A stretch of DNA of 64,000 bases from Thermoflexales bacterium (GTDB lineage: Bacteria; Chloroflexota; Anaerolineae; B4-G1; DUEL01), in the NCBI GenBank assembly GCA_014360895.1, contig JACIWQ010000002.1:6629-70628 (forward strand), given 5' to 3'. The notes beneath the pieces are model-generated. The model made no database searches. It saw only the letters and a list, made by a program, of their open reading frames with translations, and was not told where the DNA came from. Positions 8,346 through 54,760 of the stretch are shown one piece after another (positions within the stretch are counted from its first letter, which is position 1; each line of letters starts with the position of its first letter). The translations under genes and the position numbers were made by a program.

Positions 8346-8640
8346 CATATCGGGTCTGCGCCACCGCAGCATAGGCCGCCAGGCTGGTCTGGGTATAGAC
8401 GAACAGCCCGCGCTACGGCATAAGGTCATTGCGAGGGCACGGAGTGCCCGAAGGGTCATTGCGAGGGCGCGCAGCGCCCGAGGCAATCCCCAGAAGCGAC
8501 GGGGGGATTGCTTCGCTGCCCTGACGGGCGGCTCGCAATGACGTAAGGTGACGGTCACCTTCAGTGACTGTCACCTTGTTCGCCCCTTCGGGCTCGCAAT
8601 GACCTTTGCGAAGGGGTTTGTGGGGAGCGCACCGGCCCCT
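8346..8640. repeat. Composite repeat: family D unit, then palindromic family A elements (GGTCATTGCGAG...CTCGCAATGACC) with an embedded family B palindrome (GGTGACGGTCACC/AGTGACTGTCACC)
   Basis: The same units recur at 15968, 16750, 19867, 45758-45872 and 62788. ORFs in the track here are spurious. Confidence 0.7.
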
Positions 8641-9571: not shown

Positions 9572-9612
9572 ATGGGTATACGGTAAATTGGTATACTGGT
9601 CAGTGGTCAGTG

Positions 9613-9675
<63 letters not shown>

Positions 9676-13111: not shown

Positions 13112-13296
13112 TTCTTCAACGAAAATCTGCGCTCGTCCGCGTTCATCCGCGTCCTAATTATCCCGTTGCAATTCGCCTGTACAGACCTGGCGGCCTGCGC
13201 TACGTTGAAAATCTGCGCTCGTCCGCGTTCATCCGCGTCCTAATTATCCCGCTACAATTCGCCTGTACAGGCCTGGCGGCCTGCGCTACGTTCTAT
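13112..13296. repeat. Two tandem copies of the ~90-bp repeat family C element
   Basis: Near-identical direct repeats at 13118-13203 and 13207-13292. They are also related to the copy at 4741-4840. Confidence 0.8.
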
Positions 13297-13387: not shown

Positions 13388-14233
13388 GTGAACACACCGG
13401 ATTACCTCGTTGTTGGCCATGTGACCCAGGACCGGCTGCCGGACGGCTCGCTGACCCCTGGCGGCACGGCGTCCTATGCCGCCCGCACCGCCCGCGCGCT
13501 GGGCCTGCGCACCGCCGTCCTCACCAGCGCCGACGATTCCCTGGACCTGAGCGCCATCCTCCCTGATGTGGAAATTTACCGCGTTCCGGCGGCCACCAGC
13601 ACCATCTTTGAAAACCGCTACACGTCGGACGGACGGGTCCAATTCCTGCACGCCCGCGCCGCCCTCCTGACACCGGAGACGCTGTGGAGCGCAGGATTTG
13701 TCTTGCCGCGCCATATCGGCATCCTCCACCTGGGCCCCGTGGCGCGGGAATGCGACCCCGCCCTGGCCGATCACATCCCCGCCGACTTCCTGGGCCTGAC
13801 CCCCCAGGGCTGGATGCGCCGCTGGGACGGGGCCGGACGGGTCGCCCCCGGCCCCTGGGAGGAGGCGGAGACGTGGCTCCCGCGCGCCGACGCCGTCGTC
13901 CTGAGCGAAGAGGACATCGGCGGCGACGAGGCGCTGGCCGCCCGCTGGGCCGCACAGACCCGGGTCCTGGCCGTCACCCGGGGCGCGTGCGGATGCTCCG
14001 TCTATGCCGACGGCCGGGTCTGGCACCTGCCCGCGTTCCCGGCTCGGGAGGTGGACCCCACCGGCGCGGGGGACATCTTCGCCGCCGTCTTCTTCACCTG
14101 CCTCTGGCAGGGCGACGACCCGGTCCGGGCCGCCCGCCGGGCTAACTGCATCGCCGCCGTCTCCGTCACCCGGCCCGGCCTCTCCGGCACCCCCACCCCG
14201 GCCGAAATCGCCCGCTGCCTCGGGCAGGAGTGA
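13388..14233 (+). CDS. PfkB-family carbohydrate/nucleoside kinase
   Basis: Ribokinase-like fold with the C-terminal DPTGAGD motif. GTG start. Confidence 0.7.
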   Translation: MNTPDYLVVGHVTQDRLPDGSLTPGGTASYAARTARALGLRTAVLTSADDSLDLSAILPDVEIYRVPAATSTIFENRYTSDGRVQFLHARAALLTPETLWSAGFVLPRHIGILHLGPVARECDPALADHIPADFLGLTPQGWMRRWDGAGRVAPGPWEEAETWLPRADAVVLSEEDIGGDEALAARWAAQTRVLAVTRGACGCSVYADGRVWHLPAFPAREVDPTGAGDIFAAVFFTCLWQGDDPVRAARRANCIAAVSVTRPGLSGTPTPAEIARCLGQE

Positions 14234-14301
14234 AAACCACAAAGACACGAAGACATAAACCCATTCATCGTGTCTTTGTGCCTTCGCGGTGACCATCCGA
14301 A

Positions 14302-16749: not shown

Positions 16750-17112
16750 GGTCATTGCGAGCCCGAAGGGCGAAGCAACCGGTCATTGCGAGCCCGAAGG
16801 GCGAAGCAACCGGTCACTGCGAGCCCCGAAGGGCGAAGCAACCGGTCATTGCGAGCCCGAAGGGCGAAGCAACCGGTCATTGCGAGCCCGAAGGGCGAAG
16901 CAATCGGTCATTGCGAGCCCGAAGGGCGAAGCAACCGGTCATTGCGAGCCCGAAGGGCGAAGCAACCAGTCATTGCGAGCCCGAAGGGCGAAGCAACCGG
17001 TCATTGCGAGCCCGAAGGGCGAAGCAATCTCCTCGTCGCTTCTGGGGATTGCTTCGGGGCTATCGCCCCTCGCAATGACCCTTCGGGCACTCTGTGCCCT
17101 CACAATGACCCG
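16750..17112. repeat. Tandem array of about 9 copies of a 31-bp unit (GGTCATTGCGAGCCCGAAGGGCGAAGCAACC), derived from the family A left arm and terminated by the right arm
   Basis: Strict 31-bp periodicity with no unique spacers, so this is a satellite-like expansion and not a CRISPR. ORFs across it are spurious. Confidence 0.8.
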
Positions 17113-19866: not shown

Positions 19867-20150
19867 GTCATTGCGAGGGAGCACAGCGCCCGAGGGGTCA
19901 TTGCGAGGGCGCGAAGCGCCCGAAGCAATCCCCAGAAGCGACGAGGAGATTGCTTCGCCCTTCGGGCTCGCAATGACTGTCCGGGGTCATTGCGAGGGCG
20001 TGCAGTGCCCGAAGCAATCCCCAGAAGCGACGAGGAGATTGCTTCGCCCTTCGGGCTCGCAATGACTGTCTGGGGTCATTGCGAGGGCGTGCAGCGCCCG
20101 AAGCAATCCCCATCCAGTGGAGACTGCTTCGCTCCGCTCGCAGTGAATAG
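19867..20150. repeat. Three or more tandem family A palindromic elements
   Basis: Repeated GGTCATTGCGAGGGCG..GCCCGAAGCAATCCCCAGAAGCGACGAGGAGATTGCTTCGCCCTTCGGGCTCGCAATGAC units. ORFs in the track here are spurious. Confidence 0.75.
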
Positions 20151-22627: not shown

Positions 22628-25444
22628 TTAACGAATCTCCAGCGGGAAACTCAACGCCCGGTCCGACGGAGCCTCCAACCCAAAGGTGACGGGCATCCGC
22701 TCACCGTCCGGAGCGTAGAGCCCCGCGCGAATCTGATAGGTCCCTGCGGGGAGGCCCGGCAGCGGGTGTGGGTCGGTGACAATCTCGCCGGGAACCCACG
22801 TGTGGGTGGGGCGTCCGTTGAGGCCGGGCCAGCCGTCGTGCTGGGCCACCAGGGAGAGCGGCGCGTCCGGCGGGGTGATGTGGACAAAAACCGAGCGGGG
22901 GGTATCGTCCGTAAAGCCGGCCCGCCAGATGAGGGTCACGGTGAACGGTTCGCCGGCCTGCACCTGGGGCGGGTCCAGGCGGTATCCCAGCAGGGTAGCG
23001 AATCCGGGCCCGAATTCTGCCCCTACCGGTTCGTAGGGGACAGTCGGTTCGGCGAAGACCCGCTCTGTCCGGACGGTAACCGTCGGGCCATACCAGACTC
23101 CGCCCGTCTCCGACCCGTCGGCCCGCAGCAGGCGAACCTCCAGCGGGGCCTCCAGGTCCAGCGCCCGGCACGGGAAGATGAGTTGGAAGTAGGACCGGAT
23201 GCGGTCGCCGGGGCGCAGGAGGGCCTGGGATTCGGCGGGGGCCAGCGGGTTCTCCTCCCGGTGTTCCCCCGCCACAATCGCCACCCGGTACTCTTCCCGG
23301 AGGGGCTCCCGGACCTCCCAGAAGAGTTCCCCCGTGATTTTCCGGCAGGGCACCCCTTCGCTCTGGAAGAGGTGGACCCCCAGGAGGGCCAGCGGAGCCG
23401 GTGCCCCGGCCGGACGGGCCGGGGAGAACTCCCCCGGCATCTCCGGCGGCGACGCGGGTTGAGTGACCGTGATGGGTCGGAGGGCGATTGTCCCCGCCGC
23501 CTCCTGTGTGTAGAGGGTCAGCGTGGGGGTGTAGACGCCGGGAGGAGTCCCCGCCGGGAGGCGCAGGAAGAAGCGCCCGAAGACCGGTACACCGGGGGGC
23601 CAGCGCTCCGGCCGGTAGTCGCCGTCGGTCACGATGCGGTCGTCCTGGCCCCACTCCACTCCCAGCCCGTCCCGCAGCCGGAAAGAGGCCATATAGAGGG
23701 CTCCCGTGTGTCGCGCGGGGTCGTCCGTTGTCCACCAGACCCGCAGTTCCAGCGGCTGGTCGGCGGGATGAGGCCCCTCCGGCAGGAAGTATCCCCAGAG
23801 GCGAACCCCCGGCAGGAGTTCCACGTCGGGCCGGTCGGTCGTGGGCGGCTCCAGGGGGAAGTTTGGGGGGCCGTCCAGCAGGAACCGGCGGACCCGCAGG
23901 TGGCGGAAGTAGGGCACCGGCTCCTCGCGCGCCACGTCTTCCAGAAGCGTCTCCACCAGCCGGGTCGGGTCGGTGACGCCGTCCAGCCAGGCCACCAGCC
24001 AGACGGAGCAGGGGGCCGGCCGTGCGCCACAGGGCGCGAGGGCGGTGTTCAGGGTTCGGGCGACTTCGGGGTAGGTCAGGACGTGGGTGACGTCCAGCAG
24101 GGGGTCGTTGGGCATCGGGAGCATCCCCTTGGCCCCGGCGTAGTAGAGCCAGGTCGGGAAGACGGAGCCGGTGGAGATGAGGACAACGTCGCCGGGGGCC
24201 CGGTGTTCCTGGATGTAGCGGGCCGCGCCGCGCCAGTCCTGGCGGGCGTAGGCCGGATTGGTCAGCAGGTTGCGGTCGGCCTCCCAGAGGAAGCGGCCGG
24301 CCAGCGCCGTCGCGGCGGTCAGGAGAAGGGCGACGAGGGCCCGGACCCCCCGACGGCGGGCGTTCTCCAGGCTTCCCCACGCGACGGCCAGGGCCAGAAA
24401 GGTCGCGGGGGCAAAGAGGGCCGCGTGGCGGGCGCCCCATTTGGGGATTTCTTGGTAGGTGTAGGCGATGAGCAGGAGCGGCGCGGCGTAGAGAAAGGGA
24501 TACAGGCCCGGCAGGAGCTGGGGGCGGGAAGCGGCCAGGGCCAGAAGCGCGGCCAGGAGGACAATGCAGGCCGCCGTCTCCGCCACCTCATCTGGGAGAT
24601 GCTCCATCACGGTCAGCCCGCCGAGGGAGATACGGAGCAGGTAGGGCGGGGGCATATACCCGTGCCAGTAGGTCATGTTCAGGGGTGCCATCTTCACGGC
24701 GACCCAGGCCCAGGGAAGGTAGAGGACCGCCACCACCAGGGCGGGGAGAAAGAAACGCTTTCTCAAAACCGCAAAGGGCGCGAAGAGCGCAAAGAAATCT
24801 AAAGAATCTTTGCGTTCTTTGCGGTTAGAAAATTCCACTTTGGCCGCGAGAACGGCGACCAGCGCGATAAGCCCCTGTCCGACGAGCCAGAAGCCGGCCA
24901 GGGCCAGGGTGTAGAGGGCGGCGAGGGTGAACGTGGCCCAGAGCCAGGCCCAGAGCTGGCGCCCACGGGCAGAAGAGGCCGCGAGGGTTTCCAGCAGGGC
25001 GACGTCGGCCAGCAGGGTCCAGGCCAGCGCAGGGCCGTACATGCGGACCTCGCGGGAGGCCCAGAGGAAGGGGGTGCCGACCGCGAAGAGGAGCGCCGCG
25101 GCCAGCGCGCCCAGGGGCCGTCCGGTGAGGCGTCCGGCCAGCCGCGCGGCTCCAGCGATGGTCAGGACGCCCATGAGCACCGACGGCCATCGGAGGGCGA
25201 ACTCCGTCGCGCCGGCCAGGGGAATCCAGGCCCGGAGCAAGAGGTAATAGAGAGGCGGGACGACTTCCCGCGCGCTGAGGCTCAGCATCTCCCGCAGGGG
25301 AACCTGGGAAGCCACCCACCAGCAGTAGGCCTCGTCGTACCAGAGGCTCCAGCGGTCCAGCCCTCCTGCGCGCAGGGCGAGAGCGAGAAGGAGGCAGAAA
25401 ACCAGAGGCAGGAGCCTCGGGAGGGTCAGGCGGTTATCGGACAT
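22628..25444 (-). CDS. Large membrane glycosyltransferase, family 39 (ArnT/PMT-like) with a long C-terminal extracytoplasmic domain
   Basis: N-terminal multi-TM region with a WYDEAY-type loop motif typical of GT39/PMT_2. The start was set at the internal ATG 25444 (MSDNRLTLPRLLPLVF). Confidence 0.65.
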   Translation of the reverse strand: MSDNRLTLPRLLPLVFCLLLALALRAGGLDRWSLWYDEAYCWWVASQVPLREMLSLSAREVVPPLYYLLLRAWIPLAGATEFALRWPSVLMGVLTIAGAARLAGRLTGRPLGALAAALLFAVGTPFLWASREVRMYGPALAWTLLADVALLETLAASSARGRQLWAWLWATFTLAALYTLALAGFWLVGQGLIALVAVLAAKVEFSNRKERKDSLDFFALFAPFAVLRKRFFLPALVVAVLYLPWAWVAVKMAPLNMTYWHGYMPPPYLLRISLGGLTVMEHLPDEVAETAACIVLLAALLALAASRPQLLPGLYPFLYAAPLLLIAYTYQEIPKWGARHAALFAPATFLALAVAWGSLENARRRGVRALVALLLTAATALAGRFLWEADRNLLTNPAYARQDWRGAARYIQEHRAPGDVVLISTGSVFPTWLYYAGAKGMLPMPNDPLLDVTHVLTYPEVARTLNTALAPCGARPAPCSVWLVAWLDGVTDPTRLVETLLEDVAREEPVPYFRHLRVRRFLLDGPPNFPLEPPTTDRPDVELLPGVRLWGYFLPEGPHPADQPLELRVWWTTDDPARHTGALYMASFRLRDGLGVEWGQDDRIVTDGDYRPERWPPGVPVFGRFFLRLPAGTPPGVYTPTLTLYTQEAAGTIALRPITVTQPASPPEMPGEFSPARPAGAPAPLALLGVHLFQSEGVPCRKITGELFWEVREPLREEYRVAIVAGEHREENPLAPAESQALLRPGDRIRSYFQLIFPCRALDLEAPLEVRLLRADGSETGGVWYGPTVTVRTERVFAEPTVPYEPVGAEFGPGFATLLGYRLDPPQVQAGEPFTVTLIWRAGFTDDTPRSVFVHITPPDAPLSLVAQHDGWPGLNGRPTHTWVPGEIVTDPHPLPGLPAGTYQIRAGLYAPDGERMPVTFGLEAPSDRALSFPLEIR

Positions 25445-31626: not shown

Positions 31627-33678
31627 TTATCTCTCCGGCTCGGGGCGGATCAGCCCGTGCTCTATCTCCTCTTGTAGCAACTTCAGGTCAGCGTCTACCA
31701 TCATTTTGACCAATTCCTCAAAGGAGACGGTGGGCTCCCAACCCAGGACCCGGCGGGCCTTAGAGGGGTCGGCGACCAGCAGGTCCACTTCGGCGGGGCG
31801 CATATAGCGGGGGTCCTGGATGACGTAATCCCGCCAGTCCAGCCCGACGTGGGCGAAGGCGATCTCGCAGAGTTCCCGCACCGAGTGGGTCTGGCCGGTG
31901 CCGACGACGTAGTCATCGGGGGCGGGTTGCTGGAGCATCAACCACATGGCGCGGACGTAGTCCCCGGCGAAGCCCCAGTCCCGGCGGGCATCCAGGTTGC
32001 CCAGCCGCAGTTCCTTCGCCAGTCCCAGTTTGATCTTCGCCACGCCGTAGGAGACCTTGCGAGTGACGAATTCCAGGCCCCGACGGGGGGAGTTATGGAT
32101 CCACCCCTGCCCAACCCCGGCATGGAAAGTGCCGGATTGGGTGGCGAGGTCAAACAGCCAGCCTCTATACGGGACGGGAGTGGTCTGGACGACCTCGGAG
32201 AGCGGACGCCGCAAGTGCTGACCCTTCTGCCCCGGAACCCCAGGGGAGTTGAGATTGATTTGGTAGTAGAGGCGACCGTCCCGCTCTTCCAGGCAGAGGA
32301 TGGCCCGCTGGTCCAGAGTGACCCGGGCTAACCAGTACAACCCGGCGGCCAGGGGGGCAGAGGCCGTTTTGAACCCCTTGAACTCGTACCGGACGGGGGC
32401 CCGCTGCAGGCCATCCCCGGCATTGTACCCCCGCAAAAAGGCCAGCCGGGCCTCCGGTCCGGCGTTCAGCACCCGTTGGGGAATCCGTTTGTGGCCGGAA
32501 CGGGTGTAGATGGTGCTTCGGATATAGCGGCCGTACTCGTTGGCCCCCGGAAGGTACAACTGACAGACCGGCTCTCCTCCCTCAAATCCACTGGGGTGTA
32601 CGGAGAACCGACTGCGGCAGCCGATCACCTGCCGGGCCACTTCCGCCACCTGTTCCAGAAACTGGACATCCTGACTGGTAATCTGGATTTTTCCCTCCTC
32701 GCTGATATATCCATCGGCCACGATGACGCCCAGCAGCCATGCCTCTGCTTCGGTCATCTGAATGGCATTGGTCGGCGGGGGGAGTTCTATCAGGGCCAGA
32801 TGGTCCCCGGGGCGCACCTCCTCCGTCCGTCGGGAAGAGGGCCGGCCGTTTTCTCCAACGAATACCTGATGGTCTGCGGTGGTGTGATAGACGGCCCCCC
32901 GAGCGGCCACGCGGTACACCTCTTTGTTCAGTTTGCGCTCAAAGCCGTTCCAGGTCGCCGTCATACAGGTGACCGGTGTCCATCCGCCCGCATCCCATAC
33001 TTCCAGGGGGTCGTCCGGGTCCACCTCGGTGGTGAAGCGGGTGGCGGTGTGGGGTTCGGTCCGGTGAGGAACAACATCCTCTATGGGCAGGATGTCTATC
33101 AGGCCATCCCGCCGGATAATCACCGGGGTCTCGCCTGTCACGCATTCGTGGTTGAACAGGATGCCGGAGACCGCATAGATACCGAAAGACTCCCGGTAGT
33201 TGACCGTGATCCAGTGGCCGTAGACCTTGGCCACTCCGTAGGGGCTGCGGGGGTAGAAGGGGGTCAGTTCGTTCTGGGGGACCTCCCGGACCTTGCCGAA
33301 CATCTCTGACGAACTGGCCTGATAGAAACGGATGCTGGGGTCTACGGTGCGGATAGCTTCCAGCATTCGGGTGACCCCCAGCGCGGTGACCTCGCCGGTG
33401 AAGACCGGTTGCTCCCACGAGGTGGGGACGAAGGACTGGGCGGCCAGGTTGTAGACCTCGTCTGGCTCGTATTCCCGCAGGATGGAGATGAGAGACCCCT
33501 GGTCCAGCAGGTCGCCGGAGACCAGGGTGATTTTGTCCTGGATGTGCTGGATGCGGGAGAAGTTGACCGTGCTGGTGCGGCGCACCATGCCGATGACTTC
33601 GTACCCTTTCTCCAGCAAAAATTCCGCCAGATACGAACCGTCCTGTCCGGTGATACCGGTGATTAAGGCTCGGGGCAT
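31627..33678 (-). CDS. gmd: GDP-mannose 4,6-dehydratase interrupted by an intein
   Basis: Exteins match Gmd ([25 protein letters not shown]...GILFNHE // [12 protein letters not shown]...). The start was moved to ATG 33678, which has an AGGAGG RBS. Confidence 0.85.
32092..33144 (-). mobile_element. Intein (351 aa) with a LAGLIDADG homing-endonuclease domain, inserted in gmd between NHE and SPRRG
   Basis: N-terminal Cys directly after LFNHE. Two LAGLIDADG blocks ([25 protein letters not shown]). C-terminal HN followed by the extein Ser. Confidence 0.8.
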
Positions 33679-33691
33679 TGTACCTCCTAAC

Positions 33692-33723
33692 GCAAGTTGG
33701 CAAGTTGGCAAGTTGGCAAGTTA
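33692..33723. repeat. Tandem octamer (CAAGTTGG) x4
   Basis: Perfect tandem copies that are the reverse complement of the octamers at 34191-34254. Confidence 0.8.
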
Positions 33724-34140
33724 TGATTGGCGACGGTAGCGGCGCTGGCGCTCAATGTTGGGGGCCAGCATAGCGATGATTTCATCCAGAAGGGCCAGGC
33801 GGTGTTCCAGCACCTCGCGAGGGAGCAGGTGGTGGGCGCGGTAGTACCACCCCCGGCTTTCCCGCGCGGAGCCTATAGCAATCCGCAAGAAGTAAGAGAA
33901 CTCCTTGCCATATCCCCGACCGTATCCTTCTTCAATGTTAGCGCAAATAGAACCCGCGCTGCGAATTAATTGCTCCGCAATGGCCCGCCCTCGGGGGTCT
34001 CTGATCAGAATCGCGCAGTCCTGCCACGCCAGTTCAAAAAGGTATAAGGCCTTCGGATAAACCTGAAATCTCCAGAGCGGGTCCTGGCAGATACTCTGCG
34101 GCACCGTCCCGGCCCATTCCTCAAAGGTGATCCACTTCAT
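33721..34140 (-). CDS. Four-helix-bundle protein (TIGR02436 family)
   Basis: ...AIGSARESRGWYYRA... is typical of the family. The start was moved to ATG 34140, which has a GGGAGGG RBS. Confidence 0.7.
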   Translation of the reverse strand: MKWITFEEWAGTVPQSICQDPLWRFQVYPKALYLFELAWQDCAILIRDPRGRAIAEQLIRSAGSICANIEEGYGRGYGKEFSYFLRIAIGSARESRGWYYRAHHLLPREVLEHRLALLDEIIAMLAPNIERQRRYRRQS

Positions 34141-34190
34141 GCTTCCCTCCCAATGCATCTTGGTTATCAACCTGTCCCCTTGCTCCTGTG

Positions 34191-34254
34191 CCGACTTGCT
34201 CACTTGCCGACTTGCTCACTTGCCGACTTGCCCACTTGCCGACTTGCCCACTTG
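34191..34254. repeat. Tandem 16-mer (CCGACTTGCYCACTTG) x4, equivalent to 8 octamers of CCRACTTG-type
   Basis: It overlaps the 3' end of the rmd-like gene and encodes its odd tail ...GKSASGQVGK. Confidence 0.8.
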
Positions 34255-35193
34255 CCCTCTCCAGTACTCTAAGGTCTCTCTCAACGTCTGCTCAAGGGGA
34301 ATCTGCGGCTCCCAGCTGGTGCGGCGGCGGAACTTCTCCGCGCTCCCGTAGATGACGGGCACGTCGGCGGGGCGGTAGAGGGCCGGGTCCACCTCCACCT
34401 GGACCTCCGCGTCGGTGAAGGAAAGGAGCGTCTCCAGGATCCAGCGGATGGAGCGGGCCACGCCGGAAGCTAGATTGTAGACCTCCCCGGACTCGGCCTC
34501 CGTCGCCGCCAGGTAGTAGGCCCGGACGATGTCCCGGACGTCGGTGAAATCCCGCGCCACATCCAGATTCCCCACCCGCACTACCGGCTCCTGGAGTCCG
34601 GCCTCAATGCGGGCAATCTGTTGGGCGAAGGCCGGGACGACGAAGCGGGGGGACTGCCCCGGCCCGGTGTGGTTAAACGGCCGCAGCCGAACCACGTCCA
34701 TCCCGTAGGCCAGATGGTACTGGAGCCCCAGGAAATCCTGCCCCACTTTGCTGACCGCATAGGGGTTGACCGGGCGCAAGGGGCTCTCCTCGGTGAGGGG
34801 GAGGTCTTCCGGCCGGGGCCAGCCGTACTCCTCGTTGGACCCGATGACAATGACTCGCGACCGGCCTCCCGCTCGCCGTACCCCCTCCAGGACGTTCAAC
34901 TGGGCCCGCAGGTTGTTCTCTATCGTCTCCCACGGGTCGGCGAAGGAGGTGGGGACGAAAGATTGGGCCGCCAGGTGAAAAATGACGTCGGGGCGGAAAT
35001 CCCCCAGCAATTCGGCCACCCGCGCTCCGTCCCGCAGGTCCAGGTGGACCAGGGAGAGGCACGACTGGGGCCGGGGGTCCGCCACCGGCTCCGGATAGAC
35101 CGTCCCCAAAAGCTCCCAGTCCGGTTGGGTCAGGAGATAGTCGCAGAGATAACGTCCGACGAACCCCCCGGCTCCGGTAATCAGCGCGCGCAT
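34216..35193 (-). CDS. GDP-4-keto-6-deoxy-D-mannose reductase-like SDR (Rmd/GDP-sugar epimerase-reductase family)
   Basis: MRALITGAGGFVGRYL with YxxxK. It is adjacent to gmd, which suggests GDP-deoxyhexose synthesis. Confidence 0.65.
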   Translation of the reverse strand: MRALITGAGGFVGRYLCDYLLTQPDWELLGTVYPEPVADPRPQSCLSLVHLDLRDGARVAELLGDFRPDVIFHLAAQSFVPTSFADPWETIENNLRAQLNVLEGVRRAGGRSRVIVIGSNEEYGWPRPEDLPLTEESPLRPVNPYAVSKVGQDFLGLQYHLAYGMDVVRLRPFNHTGPGQSPRFVVPAFAQQIARIEAGLQEPVVRVGNLDVARDFTDVRDIVRAYYLAATEAESGEVYNLASGVARSIRWILETLLSFTDAEVQVEVDPALYRPADVPVIYGSAEKFRRRTSWEPQIPLEQTLRETLEYWRGQVGKSASGQVGK

Positions 35194-35301
35194 AAGTCGT
35201 CTCCGAAACGGCCAAACGGTTGTGACGTAGAGATTATACCCCAGAGAAGGGGAGTTGCCAAACCGGCCGGGTGGGTTATACTATGCGGGGAGGGTTCAGG
35301 G

Positions 35302-54668: not shown

Positions 54669-54760
54669 ATAACAAACCACGAAGACACGAAGACGCGAAG
54701 TTGGTGATTGTTCTTTGTGTCTTCGCGCCTCCGTGGTAAAATTCTTGTTAGGAGGCACTG

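Follow-up and report, generated by a model that had tools for sequence, protein, structure and literature searches.

Genes of the TIGR02436/PF05635 family, which encode small four-helix-bundle (4HB) proteins, number in the thousands and often occur many times in a single genome, and we know of no function assigned to them outside the role of Avd in diversity-generating retroelements (DGRs). Catalogues of short tandem heptamer and octamer arrays go back to 1990 for cyanobacteria, with Xanthomonas and Beggiatoaceae added later, and to our knowledge neither a mechanism nor a protein partner has been found for them. The two occur together in a 64,000-nt stretch of a Thermoflexales (Chloroflexota) genome, referred to here as the window. 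In this window, a 4HB gene located between an rmd-like gene and gmd is bracketed by two octamer arrays that are inverted copies of each other. Comparison of related sequences shows that gene and arrays form a heritable package, which is found in many operons and phyla, carries a repeat core specific to the protein clade, and is present or absent from site to site.

The closest described systems come from rRNA genes, from surveys of short repeats, and from DGRs. The intervening sequence in the 23S rRNA of Coxiella has a 28-bp terminal stem, which RNase III cuts, and an S23p open reading frame (ORF) in the loop of this stem; strain-variable tandem heptamers lie upstream of the ORF (PMC4990558). 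Rehm et al. counted 186 arrays of GGGAATC heptamers in Xanthomonas campestris, with 70 arrays in convergent pairs; these repeats were described as forming quadruplexes and having no known function, and the 4HB gene was not mentioned (PMC4692102). MacGregor reported TAACTGA arrays from Beggiatoaceae, Cyanobacteria, and Bacteroidetes, for which “no mechanism is evident” (PMC4679880). Within the ribonucleoprotein of DGRs, each of the five Avd protomers makes contact with an RNA stem-loop, whose flipped-out bases lodge in crevices between the protomers (10.1101/2023.10.23.563531). No paper tying 4HB genes to flanking tandem arrays was found in the searchable full-text literature, an absence that does not prove novelty.

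The window locus is a GDP-sugar operon. Its minus-strand order is the rmd-like gene, (GCAAGTNN)x8, a 139-codon TIGR02436 4HB gene, a CTTGCCAA array, and gmd, with the following features:

35233..35261, minus strand: promoter-like site upstream of the rmd-like gene (TTGGCA-17-TATAAT, 11/12 match).
34216..35193, minus strand: rmd-like NAD-dependent sugar epimerase/reductase gene of the short-chain dehydrogenase/reductase (SDR) type, 325 aa (PF16363, 226 bits).
34192..34255, minus strand: upstream array, (GCAAGTNN)x8 in alternating 16-mers, from Tandem Repeats Finder and exact parsing; 5′ arm of the predicted stem.
34141..34191, minus strand: 51-nt leader of the 4HB gene, read from the sequence, with its own ribosome-binding site (GGAGG at 34146-34150).
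33721..34140, minus strand: 4HB gene, 139 aa, isoelectric point (pI) 9.1 (TIGR02436/PF05635 profile matches).
33691..33720, minus strand: downstream array, (CTTGCCAA)x3 + CTTGCG, the reverse complement of the upstream unit; 3′ arm of the predicted stem.
31627..33678, minus strand: gmd (GDP-mannose 4,6-dehydratase) ORF (TIGR01472, 439 bits against a cut-off of 415).

The promoter-like site is the only candidate found that could serve rmd-4HB-gmd, and a sequence scan revealed no promoter-like or terminator-like site between the rmd-like gene, the 4HB gene, and gmd. The gmd gene, the next cistron of the rmd-4HB operon, has a ribosome-binding site of its own (GGAGG at 33683-33687). Matches of the upstream protein to NCBIfam models fall under their cut-offs, so its label is limited to rmd-like GDP-sugar SDR. 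The 4HB protein is annotated in the Thermoflexales genome bin, and the same contig also appears in a Logan assembly. A first-pass annotation made from the sequence had placed a TIGR02436-type 4HB gene at 33721-34140, between the rmd-like gene and gmd. Profile scores uphold this assignment, at 61.2 bits for PF05635 (cut-off 33.8), the sole Pfam match of the protein, and 69.7 bits for TIGR02436 (cut-off 24).

Tandem Repeats Finder delimits the downstream array to 33692-33722 (unit GCAAGTTG, period 8, 3.9 copies, 100% matches) and reports the upstream array twice, at 34179-34256 with a period of 16 (4.9 copies, 95% matches) and at 34189-34257 with a period of 8 (8.6 copies). The same first-pass annotation had put the arrays at 33692-33723 and 34191-34254 as inverted copies of each other; these coordinates and its unit strings agree with the present ones to within 1-2 nt, and the two arrays are indeed mutually reverse-complementary at 7 of the 8 positions of each unit. 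Read on the minus strand from 34255 to 34192, the variable dinucleotides (NN) of the eight GCAAGTNN units are GG, CG, GG, CG, GA, CG, GA, and CG. The downstream array begins at the first base after the TAA stop of the 4HB gene and ends 3 nt ahead of the GGAGG of gmd. When the pattern CAAGTNGGCAAGT was searched with at most one mismatch, all 10 matches in the window fell at the two arrays, on opposite strands; 0.24 matches were expected, and none of 100 shuffles reached 10. The rmd-like ORF runs 42 nt into the upstream array, and its last 13 codons (RGQVGKSASGQVGK) and its stop are array-encoded. The rmd-like protein has 325 aa in the window, with a tail 8 aa longer than that of the 317-aa proteins of two close relatives (loci L002 and L003 of the scan described below).

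The transcript from 34275 to 33670 (606 nt) was folded. In both the minimum-free-energy and the centroid folds, the four downstream units pair with upstream units 1-4 to give a predicted stem of 27 bp, with the 4HB cistron in its loop and three 1x1 mismatches, G.A or C.A, one at each 8th position. Across 73 loci, a median of 48 bp joins the two flanks, compared with 18 when the downstream flank is reversed (p = 1e-11). RNAduplex applied to whole 200-nt flanks proved too noisy on its own, and local alignment and full folds were used instead. The complementarity of the flanks is specific to the locus, with a median local alignment score of 20 against 9 in direct orientation and 10.4 with the flank of another locus (p ~1e-11).

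We propose that the element is a 4HB cassette of the intervening-sequence type that is read through within the operon, with arrays that pair in the RNA and are probably bound by a 4HB oligomer, a reading to which we give about an even chance of being correct. Having neither a promoter nor a terminator of its own, the cassette would be transcribed by read-through from the rmd promoter. The arrays in the transcript could then zip into a stem of about 27 bp, with one unpaired base pair per octamer and the 4HB cistron in the loop. Such a stem might fold, insulate, or excise the cassette RNA, on the model of the 4HB-bearing 23S rRNA intervening sequences cut by RNase III. The basic 4HB protein, as a presumed pentamer, would bind the periodic stem formed by its own repeats, for which Avd in DGRs offers a precedent. 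Solo arrays and array hairpins elsewhere in the genome could be relics or further targets.

The AlphaFold2 monomer model of the 4HB protein (pLDDT, the confidence score of the model, 95) is an up-down four-helix bundle with helices at residues 27-45, 49-74, 79-104, and 108-133. The top Foldseek matches are the S23p-family pentamers 2RLD and 2GSC (target-normalised TM-score 0.82-0.90, root-mean-square deviation 1.6-2.0 Å), with Avd of DGRs next. The window protein is presumed to form a pentamer too, on the basis of its homology with 2GSC and Avd. PADLOC and PHROGs models gave no match to the 4HB protein at E <= 0.01, and Rfam gave no rRNA or other RNA family within the 64-kb window, so that readings of the element as a defence system, a phage protein, or a known RNA are without support.

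To what extent does the bracket recur among relatives? A one-genome-per-species scan returned 501 relatives, and the best 80 loci, nearly all from Chloroflexota bins, were kept. In the 160-nt flanks of these 80 loci, an upstream array and its reverse complement downstream are found at almost all, and the bracket is kept while copy number and variable dinucleotides change. L002 and L003 encode 90%-identical 4HB proteins in the same synteny of rmd, 4HB, and an intein-bearing gmd, and have upstream (GCAAGTNN)n and downstream (NNACTTGC)n arrays whose copy numbers and variable dinucleotides differ from those of the window. Over the 80 loci, the contexts of 4HB genes include the rmd|gmd junction, pairs of ABC-2 permease genes, gnd, thiolase, and cas genes, among others. 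Many unit cores occur, and those of the two sides change together (GCAAGT/ACTTGC, GCGAAT/ATTCGC, GCAAAT/ATTTGC, GCAAGA/TCTTGC, GGTTAC/GTAACC, and GGCGAG/CTCGCC).

Other genes of at least 120 aa in the same loci (n=255) served as the control. Arrays flank both sides of 56 of 74 4HB genes and of 3 of the 255 other genes, and inverted repeated 6-mers are common to both flanks of 68/74 4HB genes and 12/255 other genes (Fisher p = 1e-43 and 1e-50, respectively). The cassettes are embedded in operons, with both neighbours co-oriented at 40 of 51 4HB genes, compared with 60 of 113 other genes (p = 0.003). It could be argued that short tandem arrays are slippage-prone intergenic filler and that the bracket is a coincidence, given that arrays are abundant in the window and related loci and lie to one side or both of 47 of the 255 other genes. 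The control comparison already contradicts this explanation, with an enrichment of more than 200-fold for the both-sides and inverted configurations at 4HB genes; in addition, the pattern is found in five or more phyla and the repeat unit covaries with the protein clade, as described below. We consider a coincidental bracket scarcely credible.

Many proteins of this 4HB subfamily in the protein match list are known only from contigs of about 0.6-1.4 kb, which is what short-read assemblies would yield if they break at the arrays on either side of the gene. In practical terms, such arrays break metagenome assemblies and append repeat-encoded tails to adjacent ORFs.

The window protein gave no match by tblastn against the PLSDB plasmids. 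A sequence fragment of XCC0516 was used as the query to reach plasmid 4HB genes in other phyla. Among the 20 plasmid 4HB loci inspected, 16 have clear inverted arrays of 7-8 nt, 3 have partial ones, and 1 has none; array density comes to about 0.3 per kb over 156 kb of these plasmids. Bracketed loci are found in Picosynechococcus between cas10 and cmr3, in Anabaena 90 between cas6 and cas4 (GGTGACA/TGTCACC), in Nostoc, Calothrix, Aulosira, Trichormus, Scytonema, Geminocystis, and Stanieria, and, outside the cyanobacteria, in Riemerella (Bacteroidota) and Gemmatirosa (Gemmatimonadota). Nearest-neighbour proteins of cyanobacteria share the repeat unit across orders and contexts. One plasmid locus (L218) was left out of the protein clustering, its ORF having been taken in the wrong frame; the arrays at this locus come from direct reading of the sequence. 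The crystallised protein XCC0516 has a homologue with 92% identity in X. campestris, whose gene is located between accB and accC with the GGGAATC family on its flanks, and two more gammaproteobacterial 4HB loci are also bracketed. Taken together, 19 of 23 distant 4HB genes are bracketed (Cyanobacteria, Bacteroidota, Gemmatimonadota, and Proteobacteria), and the gene-plus-repeats package, as identified by these comparisons, recurs in at least five bacterial phyla. The first-pass annotation had also drawn a link to 23S intervening sequences. It proved apt in the case of an Azospirillum lipoferum plasmid, whose 4HB ORF is located in a 23S rRNA gene (Rfam LSU, 546.8 bits) between (CRGAKGA)x4-5 and the inverse heptamers, repeats that are predicted to fold into a 25-bp stem (z = -10.6).

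Several 4HB genes lie within other functional clusters. In three cyanobacterial plasmids (L214, L215, and L221), co-oriented 4HB cassettes are found inside CRISPR-Cas operons, at cas10/cmr3 in Picosynechococcus and at cas6/cas4 in Anabaena sp. 90 and Pseudanabaena galeata. In a candidate division KSB1 bin (L054, 4100-7100, JAKEEU010000090.1), the order is reverse transcriptase, 4HB, cas1, and cas2, with GCAAGT-type arrays or array hairpins in each intergenic spacer. This order fits the reported linkage of 23S_rRNA_IVP proteins with CRISPR adaptation modules (PMC10910872). In X. campestris and a metagenome relative (L234 and L239), the gene of the close XCC0516 homologue is part of the essential aroQ-accB-accC cluster, where it lies between accB and accC with GGGAATC heptamers on its flanks.

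The gene and its arrays act together as a unit. On protein clustering, loci group by repeat unit despite unrelated genomic contexts, and the four main repeat types are spread over 6, 11, 11, and 2 distinct contexts. When only pairs from different contexts are compared, those of the same repeat type share 63.2% protein identity and those of different types 55.9%, a difference reached in 0 of 1000 permutations. Paralogues from a single genome bin have different units, for example L009 and L063, or L004 and L040. Within protein clades, the repeat core is unchanged despite saturated synonymous sites (synonymous divergence, dS, of about 1), from which we infer that the core sequence itself, and not merely its ability to pair, is constrained. 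The encoded 4HB protein would be the obvious candidate for a reader of this core.

Presence and absence of the package can be compared at several sites. An occupied locus (L011) and an empty one (L138) have flanks that are 98-100% identical and differ by about 517 nt, with breakpoints in the ACTTGCA/ACCTGCA units of the two right arms, which are direct repeats of array units. This is the sole precisely defined junction, and it falls within array units with no separate duplication. The empty site retains a single hybrid array hairpin, and a second empty rmd-gmd junction (L173) likewise has a hairpin. The 4HB gene of L014 and the second 4HB gene of L042 both have arrays; the orthologous spacers (L013, L019, L020, and L026 for the former, L082 for the latter) have neither gene nor arrays. 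The first-pass annotation had proposed that the right array overwrote the 3′ end of rmd, which is an overstatement. The tail encoded by the repeats does exist, but rmd also ends inside an array at L138 and L173, although the 4HB gene is absent from both.

At the rmd-gmd site itself, the order rmd-4HB-gmd is common to L001-L011, and 4HB protein identity declines in step with flank identity. The ratio of nonsynonymous to synonymous substitution (dN/dS) of the 4HB gene is 0.05-0.16, which corresponds to strong purifying selection; it was taken from L002, L003, and L007, with L005 and L008 left out on account of a mis-set start codon. Judged by this ratio and by its pI of 9.1, the 4HB protein is functional. 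The window copy is, on the evidence of broad-clade synteny, of divergence that tracks the flanks, and of this selection, old, vertically inherited, and functional, and not a recent insertion. Thus the suggestion that the structure is a small mobile cassette stands in part. The package is a unit across 2-11 contexts per repeat type, with occupied and empty sites, and against mobility there is the lack of a mobility enzyme or target-site duplication together with the vertical inheritance at rmd-gmd.

These comparisons also bear on a second explanation, in which the element is mobile at the level of DNA, its arrays being terminal inverted repeats or homology arms and the RNA stem incidental. Such an element would move by recombination with solo arrays or array hairpins, or by a recombinase acting in trans. 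The L011/L138 breakpoints inside direct repeats of array units and the hybrid hairpin at the empty site are what it would predict; simple deletion between direct repeats explains that pair equally well. Arrays come and go together with the gene at the L014 and L042 sites, the same package recurs in 2-11 contexts for each repeat type and is shared by plasmids from different orders of cyanobacteria, and a strand-specific G.U signal is absent. On the other hand, the cassettes have no linked transposase or integrase and no visible target-site duplication, their orientation bias toward co-transcription would be needless for an element with its own ends, and the rmd-gmd copy is vertical and under strong purifying selection. 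On balance we regard a DNA-level element as unlikely.

Arrays also occur in the absence of the gene. A scan seeded with (GCAAGTNN)x4 returned 130 loci from metagenome and viral contigs, of which one has a 4HB gene, 4 kb from the array. After 67 low-GC, eukaryote-like microsatellites and 30 contig-end arrays were left out, 33 evaluable high-GC loci remained (3 tight array hairpins and 30 single arrays), and none of these carries a 4HB gene. The first-pass annotation had named arrays occurring elsewhere without 4HB genes as a finding that would refute its proposal, and such arrays are common. It had also proposed a comparison with rmd-gmd junctions lacking the 4HB gene; the two empty junctions described above each retain an array hairpin. 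Given that arrays are common without the gene, the feature specific to 4HB genes is the inverted bracket.

Solo arrays of the GCAAGTAG type (L130 at about 1004-1033, L109, and L122) often start before the upstream gene has ended, within its last codons, and provide the stop codon. The units contain TAG or TGA, and the 8-nt period therefore places stops in all three frames. The L130 array is located upstream of a gene that begins like the gene for ribosomal protein L3.

A third explanation is that the 4HB protein is a trans-acting host regulator, mostly post-transcriptional, which binds arrays dispersed in spacers, the arrays around its own gene being autoregulatory sites and nothing about the system being selfish or mobile. 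Intercistronic spacers commonly contain solo arrays of the same unit, and the flanks of the X. campestris 4HB gene share the GGGAATC unit with the 186 dispersed arrays of that genome. Conservation of the core within protein clades despite saturated synonymous sites and the purifying selection on the protein would also follow from such a role. Harder to reconcile with it are the many different repeat units per genome and the absence of the gene from closely related genomes (L138) without other change. The location of 4HB genes in unrelated operons and inside rRNA is a better fit to insertion than to a fixed regulator locus, and simple operator sites do not need inverted pairing of the flanks. 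A host regulator with operators therefore seems to us improbable.

The reading that we prefer, an intervening-sequence-type cassette acting through RNA, has to be weighed against several observations that count against it. Same-unit arrays are frequent without a 4HB gene, and the window too holds octamer arrays and hairpins that lack one. No recombinase is found at the cassettes, nor a transposase, an integrase, or a target-site duplication, and inheritance at the rmd-gmd site looks vertical. The mismatches between arms show no sense-strand G.U bias (71 vs 91, p = 0.14) and are mostly of the transversion type, so that there is no compensatory-change signature to separate RNA pairing from symmetry at the DNA level. 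The best-pairing upstream units of the window fall within the last rmd codons; ribosomes translating rmd would melt a stem there, and cleavage by RNase III at that place would take away the stop codon of rmd. L009, L045, L050, and L054 show a separate hairpin on each side of the gene in place of one long-range stem. Both the stem and the binding of repeats by the protein are predictions.

A further candidate mechanism was the masking of Shine-Dalgarno-like (SD-like) standby upstream arrays by anti-SD-like downstream arrays. It fits several cyanobacterial units (AGGAG/CTCCT) and was not adopted as a general explanation, as the GCAAGT, GCGAAT, and GCAAAT units do not fit.

The window contains other repeats. 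At 9597-9674, (TGGTCAG)x3 is followed directly by (GTCATTCT)x8 (9613-9674), after a yidD-like gene and before the next ORF; the GTCATTCT array has no 4HB gene and no inverted partner. Three intergenic hairpins (14232-14290, 24775-24826, and 54678-54740), none with a 4HB gene, consist of 2-3 CRCRAAGR octamers, a loop of about 12 nt, and the inverted octamers. A hairpin of this type is also present in L003 (3880-3980), between the upstream array and the 4HB gene. A second repeat family, found at 8424-8481, 16750-17027, and 19867-20112, has a unit of 30-31 nt, GGTCATTGCGAG...GAAGCAA(C/T)C, which is tandem at 16750-17027 (8.9 copies) and also lies within 89-nt units containing its inverted copy (GATTGCTTCG...CTCGCAATGAC). 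An 86-bp direct repeat is found in two copies with 96% identity at 13121-13292.

An intein of 351 aa with a LAGLIDADG homing-endonuclease domain (32092-33144, minus strand) interrupts the gmd gene of the window at NHE|C...HN|SPRRG. L002 and L003, the two closest relatives, share this intein with the window. In L138 and the more distant rmd-4HB-gmd loci that show the motif, the intein is absent, NHE-SPRRG is contiguous, and GMD has about 325 aa.

Among described systems, the 23S intervening sequences of the Leptospira, Coxiella, Brucella, and Xanthomonas type (PMC4990558) belong to the same family and have the ORF in the loop of an inverted-repeat stem of about 25-28 bp. Both they and the window element are regarded as selfish insertions in a transcribed region, and with a predicted 27 bp the window element has the 4HB ORF in a stem of at least 25 bp that marks intervening sequences. 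Unlike them, it is located between protein-coding cistrons and not in helix 25 or 45 of the 23S rRNA, and its stem is built of octamers with a mismatch in each unit; RNase III cleavage is here predicted by analogy. Strong purifying selection acts on the window ORF, which is preceded by a good ribosome-binding site, whereas the Coxiella ORF is decaying and apparently untranslated.

DGRs offer a likeness at the level of the protein. Avd is likewise a basic four-helix bundle, is pentameric (structural matches 8UB7 and 4DWL), and binds a structured RNA encoded beside its own gene, although its sequence identity to the window protein is only about 12-14%. The locus is not itself a DGR. Within 3-4 kb on either side of the gene at L001-L003, the neighbours are NUDIX, SBP, epimerase, GMD, NTP_transf_2/HEPN, PGM, and NurA, with no reverse transcriptase (RVT), and there is no template/variable or long near-identical repeat pair.

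The arrangement also recalls several classes of mobile elements. RAYT/REPIN systems share with it a single gene between inverted short repeats and the dispersal of the same repeat genome-wide in far greater numbers. The 4HB protein, however, is no Y1 transposase and lacks any known catalytic motif, and the window repeats are tandem units of 7-8 nt and not palindromes of 20-40 nt. An insertion sequence or a miniature inverted-repeat transposable element was rejected, as the window element lacks a transposase or target-site duplication. Integron cassettes resemble it in being small promoterless ORFs with an adjacent hairpin-forming imperfect inverted repeat, in their co-directional insertion in a transcribed array, and in their presence/absence polymorphism. 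In the present case, however, there is only one gene family, and the insertions are scattered through ordinary operons. An integron cassette in the strict sense was rejected, with no integrase in the L001-L003 neighbourhood and flanks of tandem octamers in place of an attC-type imperfect palindrome.

The arrays themselves most resemble the heptamers known as short tandemly repeated repetitive (STRR) sequences, GGGAATC (PMC4692102), and TAACTGA (PMC4679880), which are 7-8 nt long, intergenic, and often found in operons near the upstream ORF. Like the window arrays, they are often convergent inverted pairs and vary in copy number. Those studies drew no link to 4HB genes, whereas the window repeats bracket one specific gene family. 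The comparison ties 4HB genes to short tandem arrays, in that inverted arrays bracket the gene in nearly all cases, the unit follows the protein clade, and a 23S rRNA intervening sequence has the same design. A joint reading can be offered tentatively, as a possibility that we think less than probable, in which Avd-like 4HB proteins are the missing partners of the 7-8-nt tandem repeats, including STRR sequences, GGGAATC, and the Chloroflexota octamers. Every 4HB clade would recognise its own repeat core; the gene would travel in its inverted-array bracket as a promoterless cassette inserting into transcribed spacers; the hundreds of solo arrays and hairpins would be non-autonomous relatives or a regulon; and the 4HB-bearing 23S rRNA intervening sequences would be cassettes that landed in rRNA. 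If this is true, such intervening sequences represent one landing site of a general cassette, and short tandem repeats acquire a concrete candidate for a binding protein. In Xanthomonas, it would predict RNase III processing at accB-4HB-accC and binding of XCC0516 to the GGGAAUC repeats.

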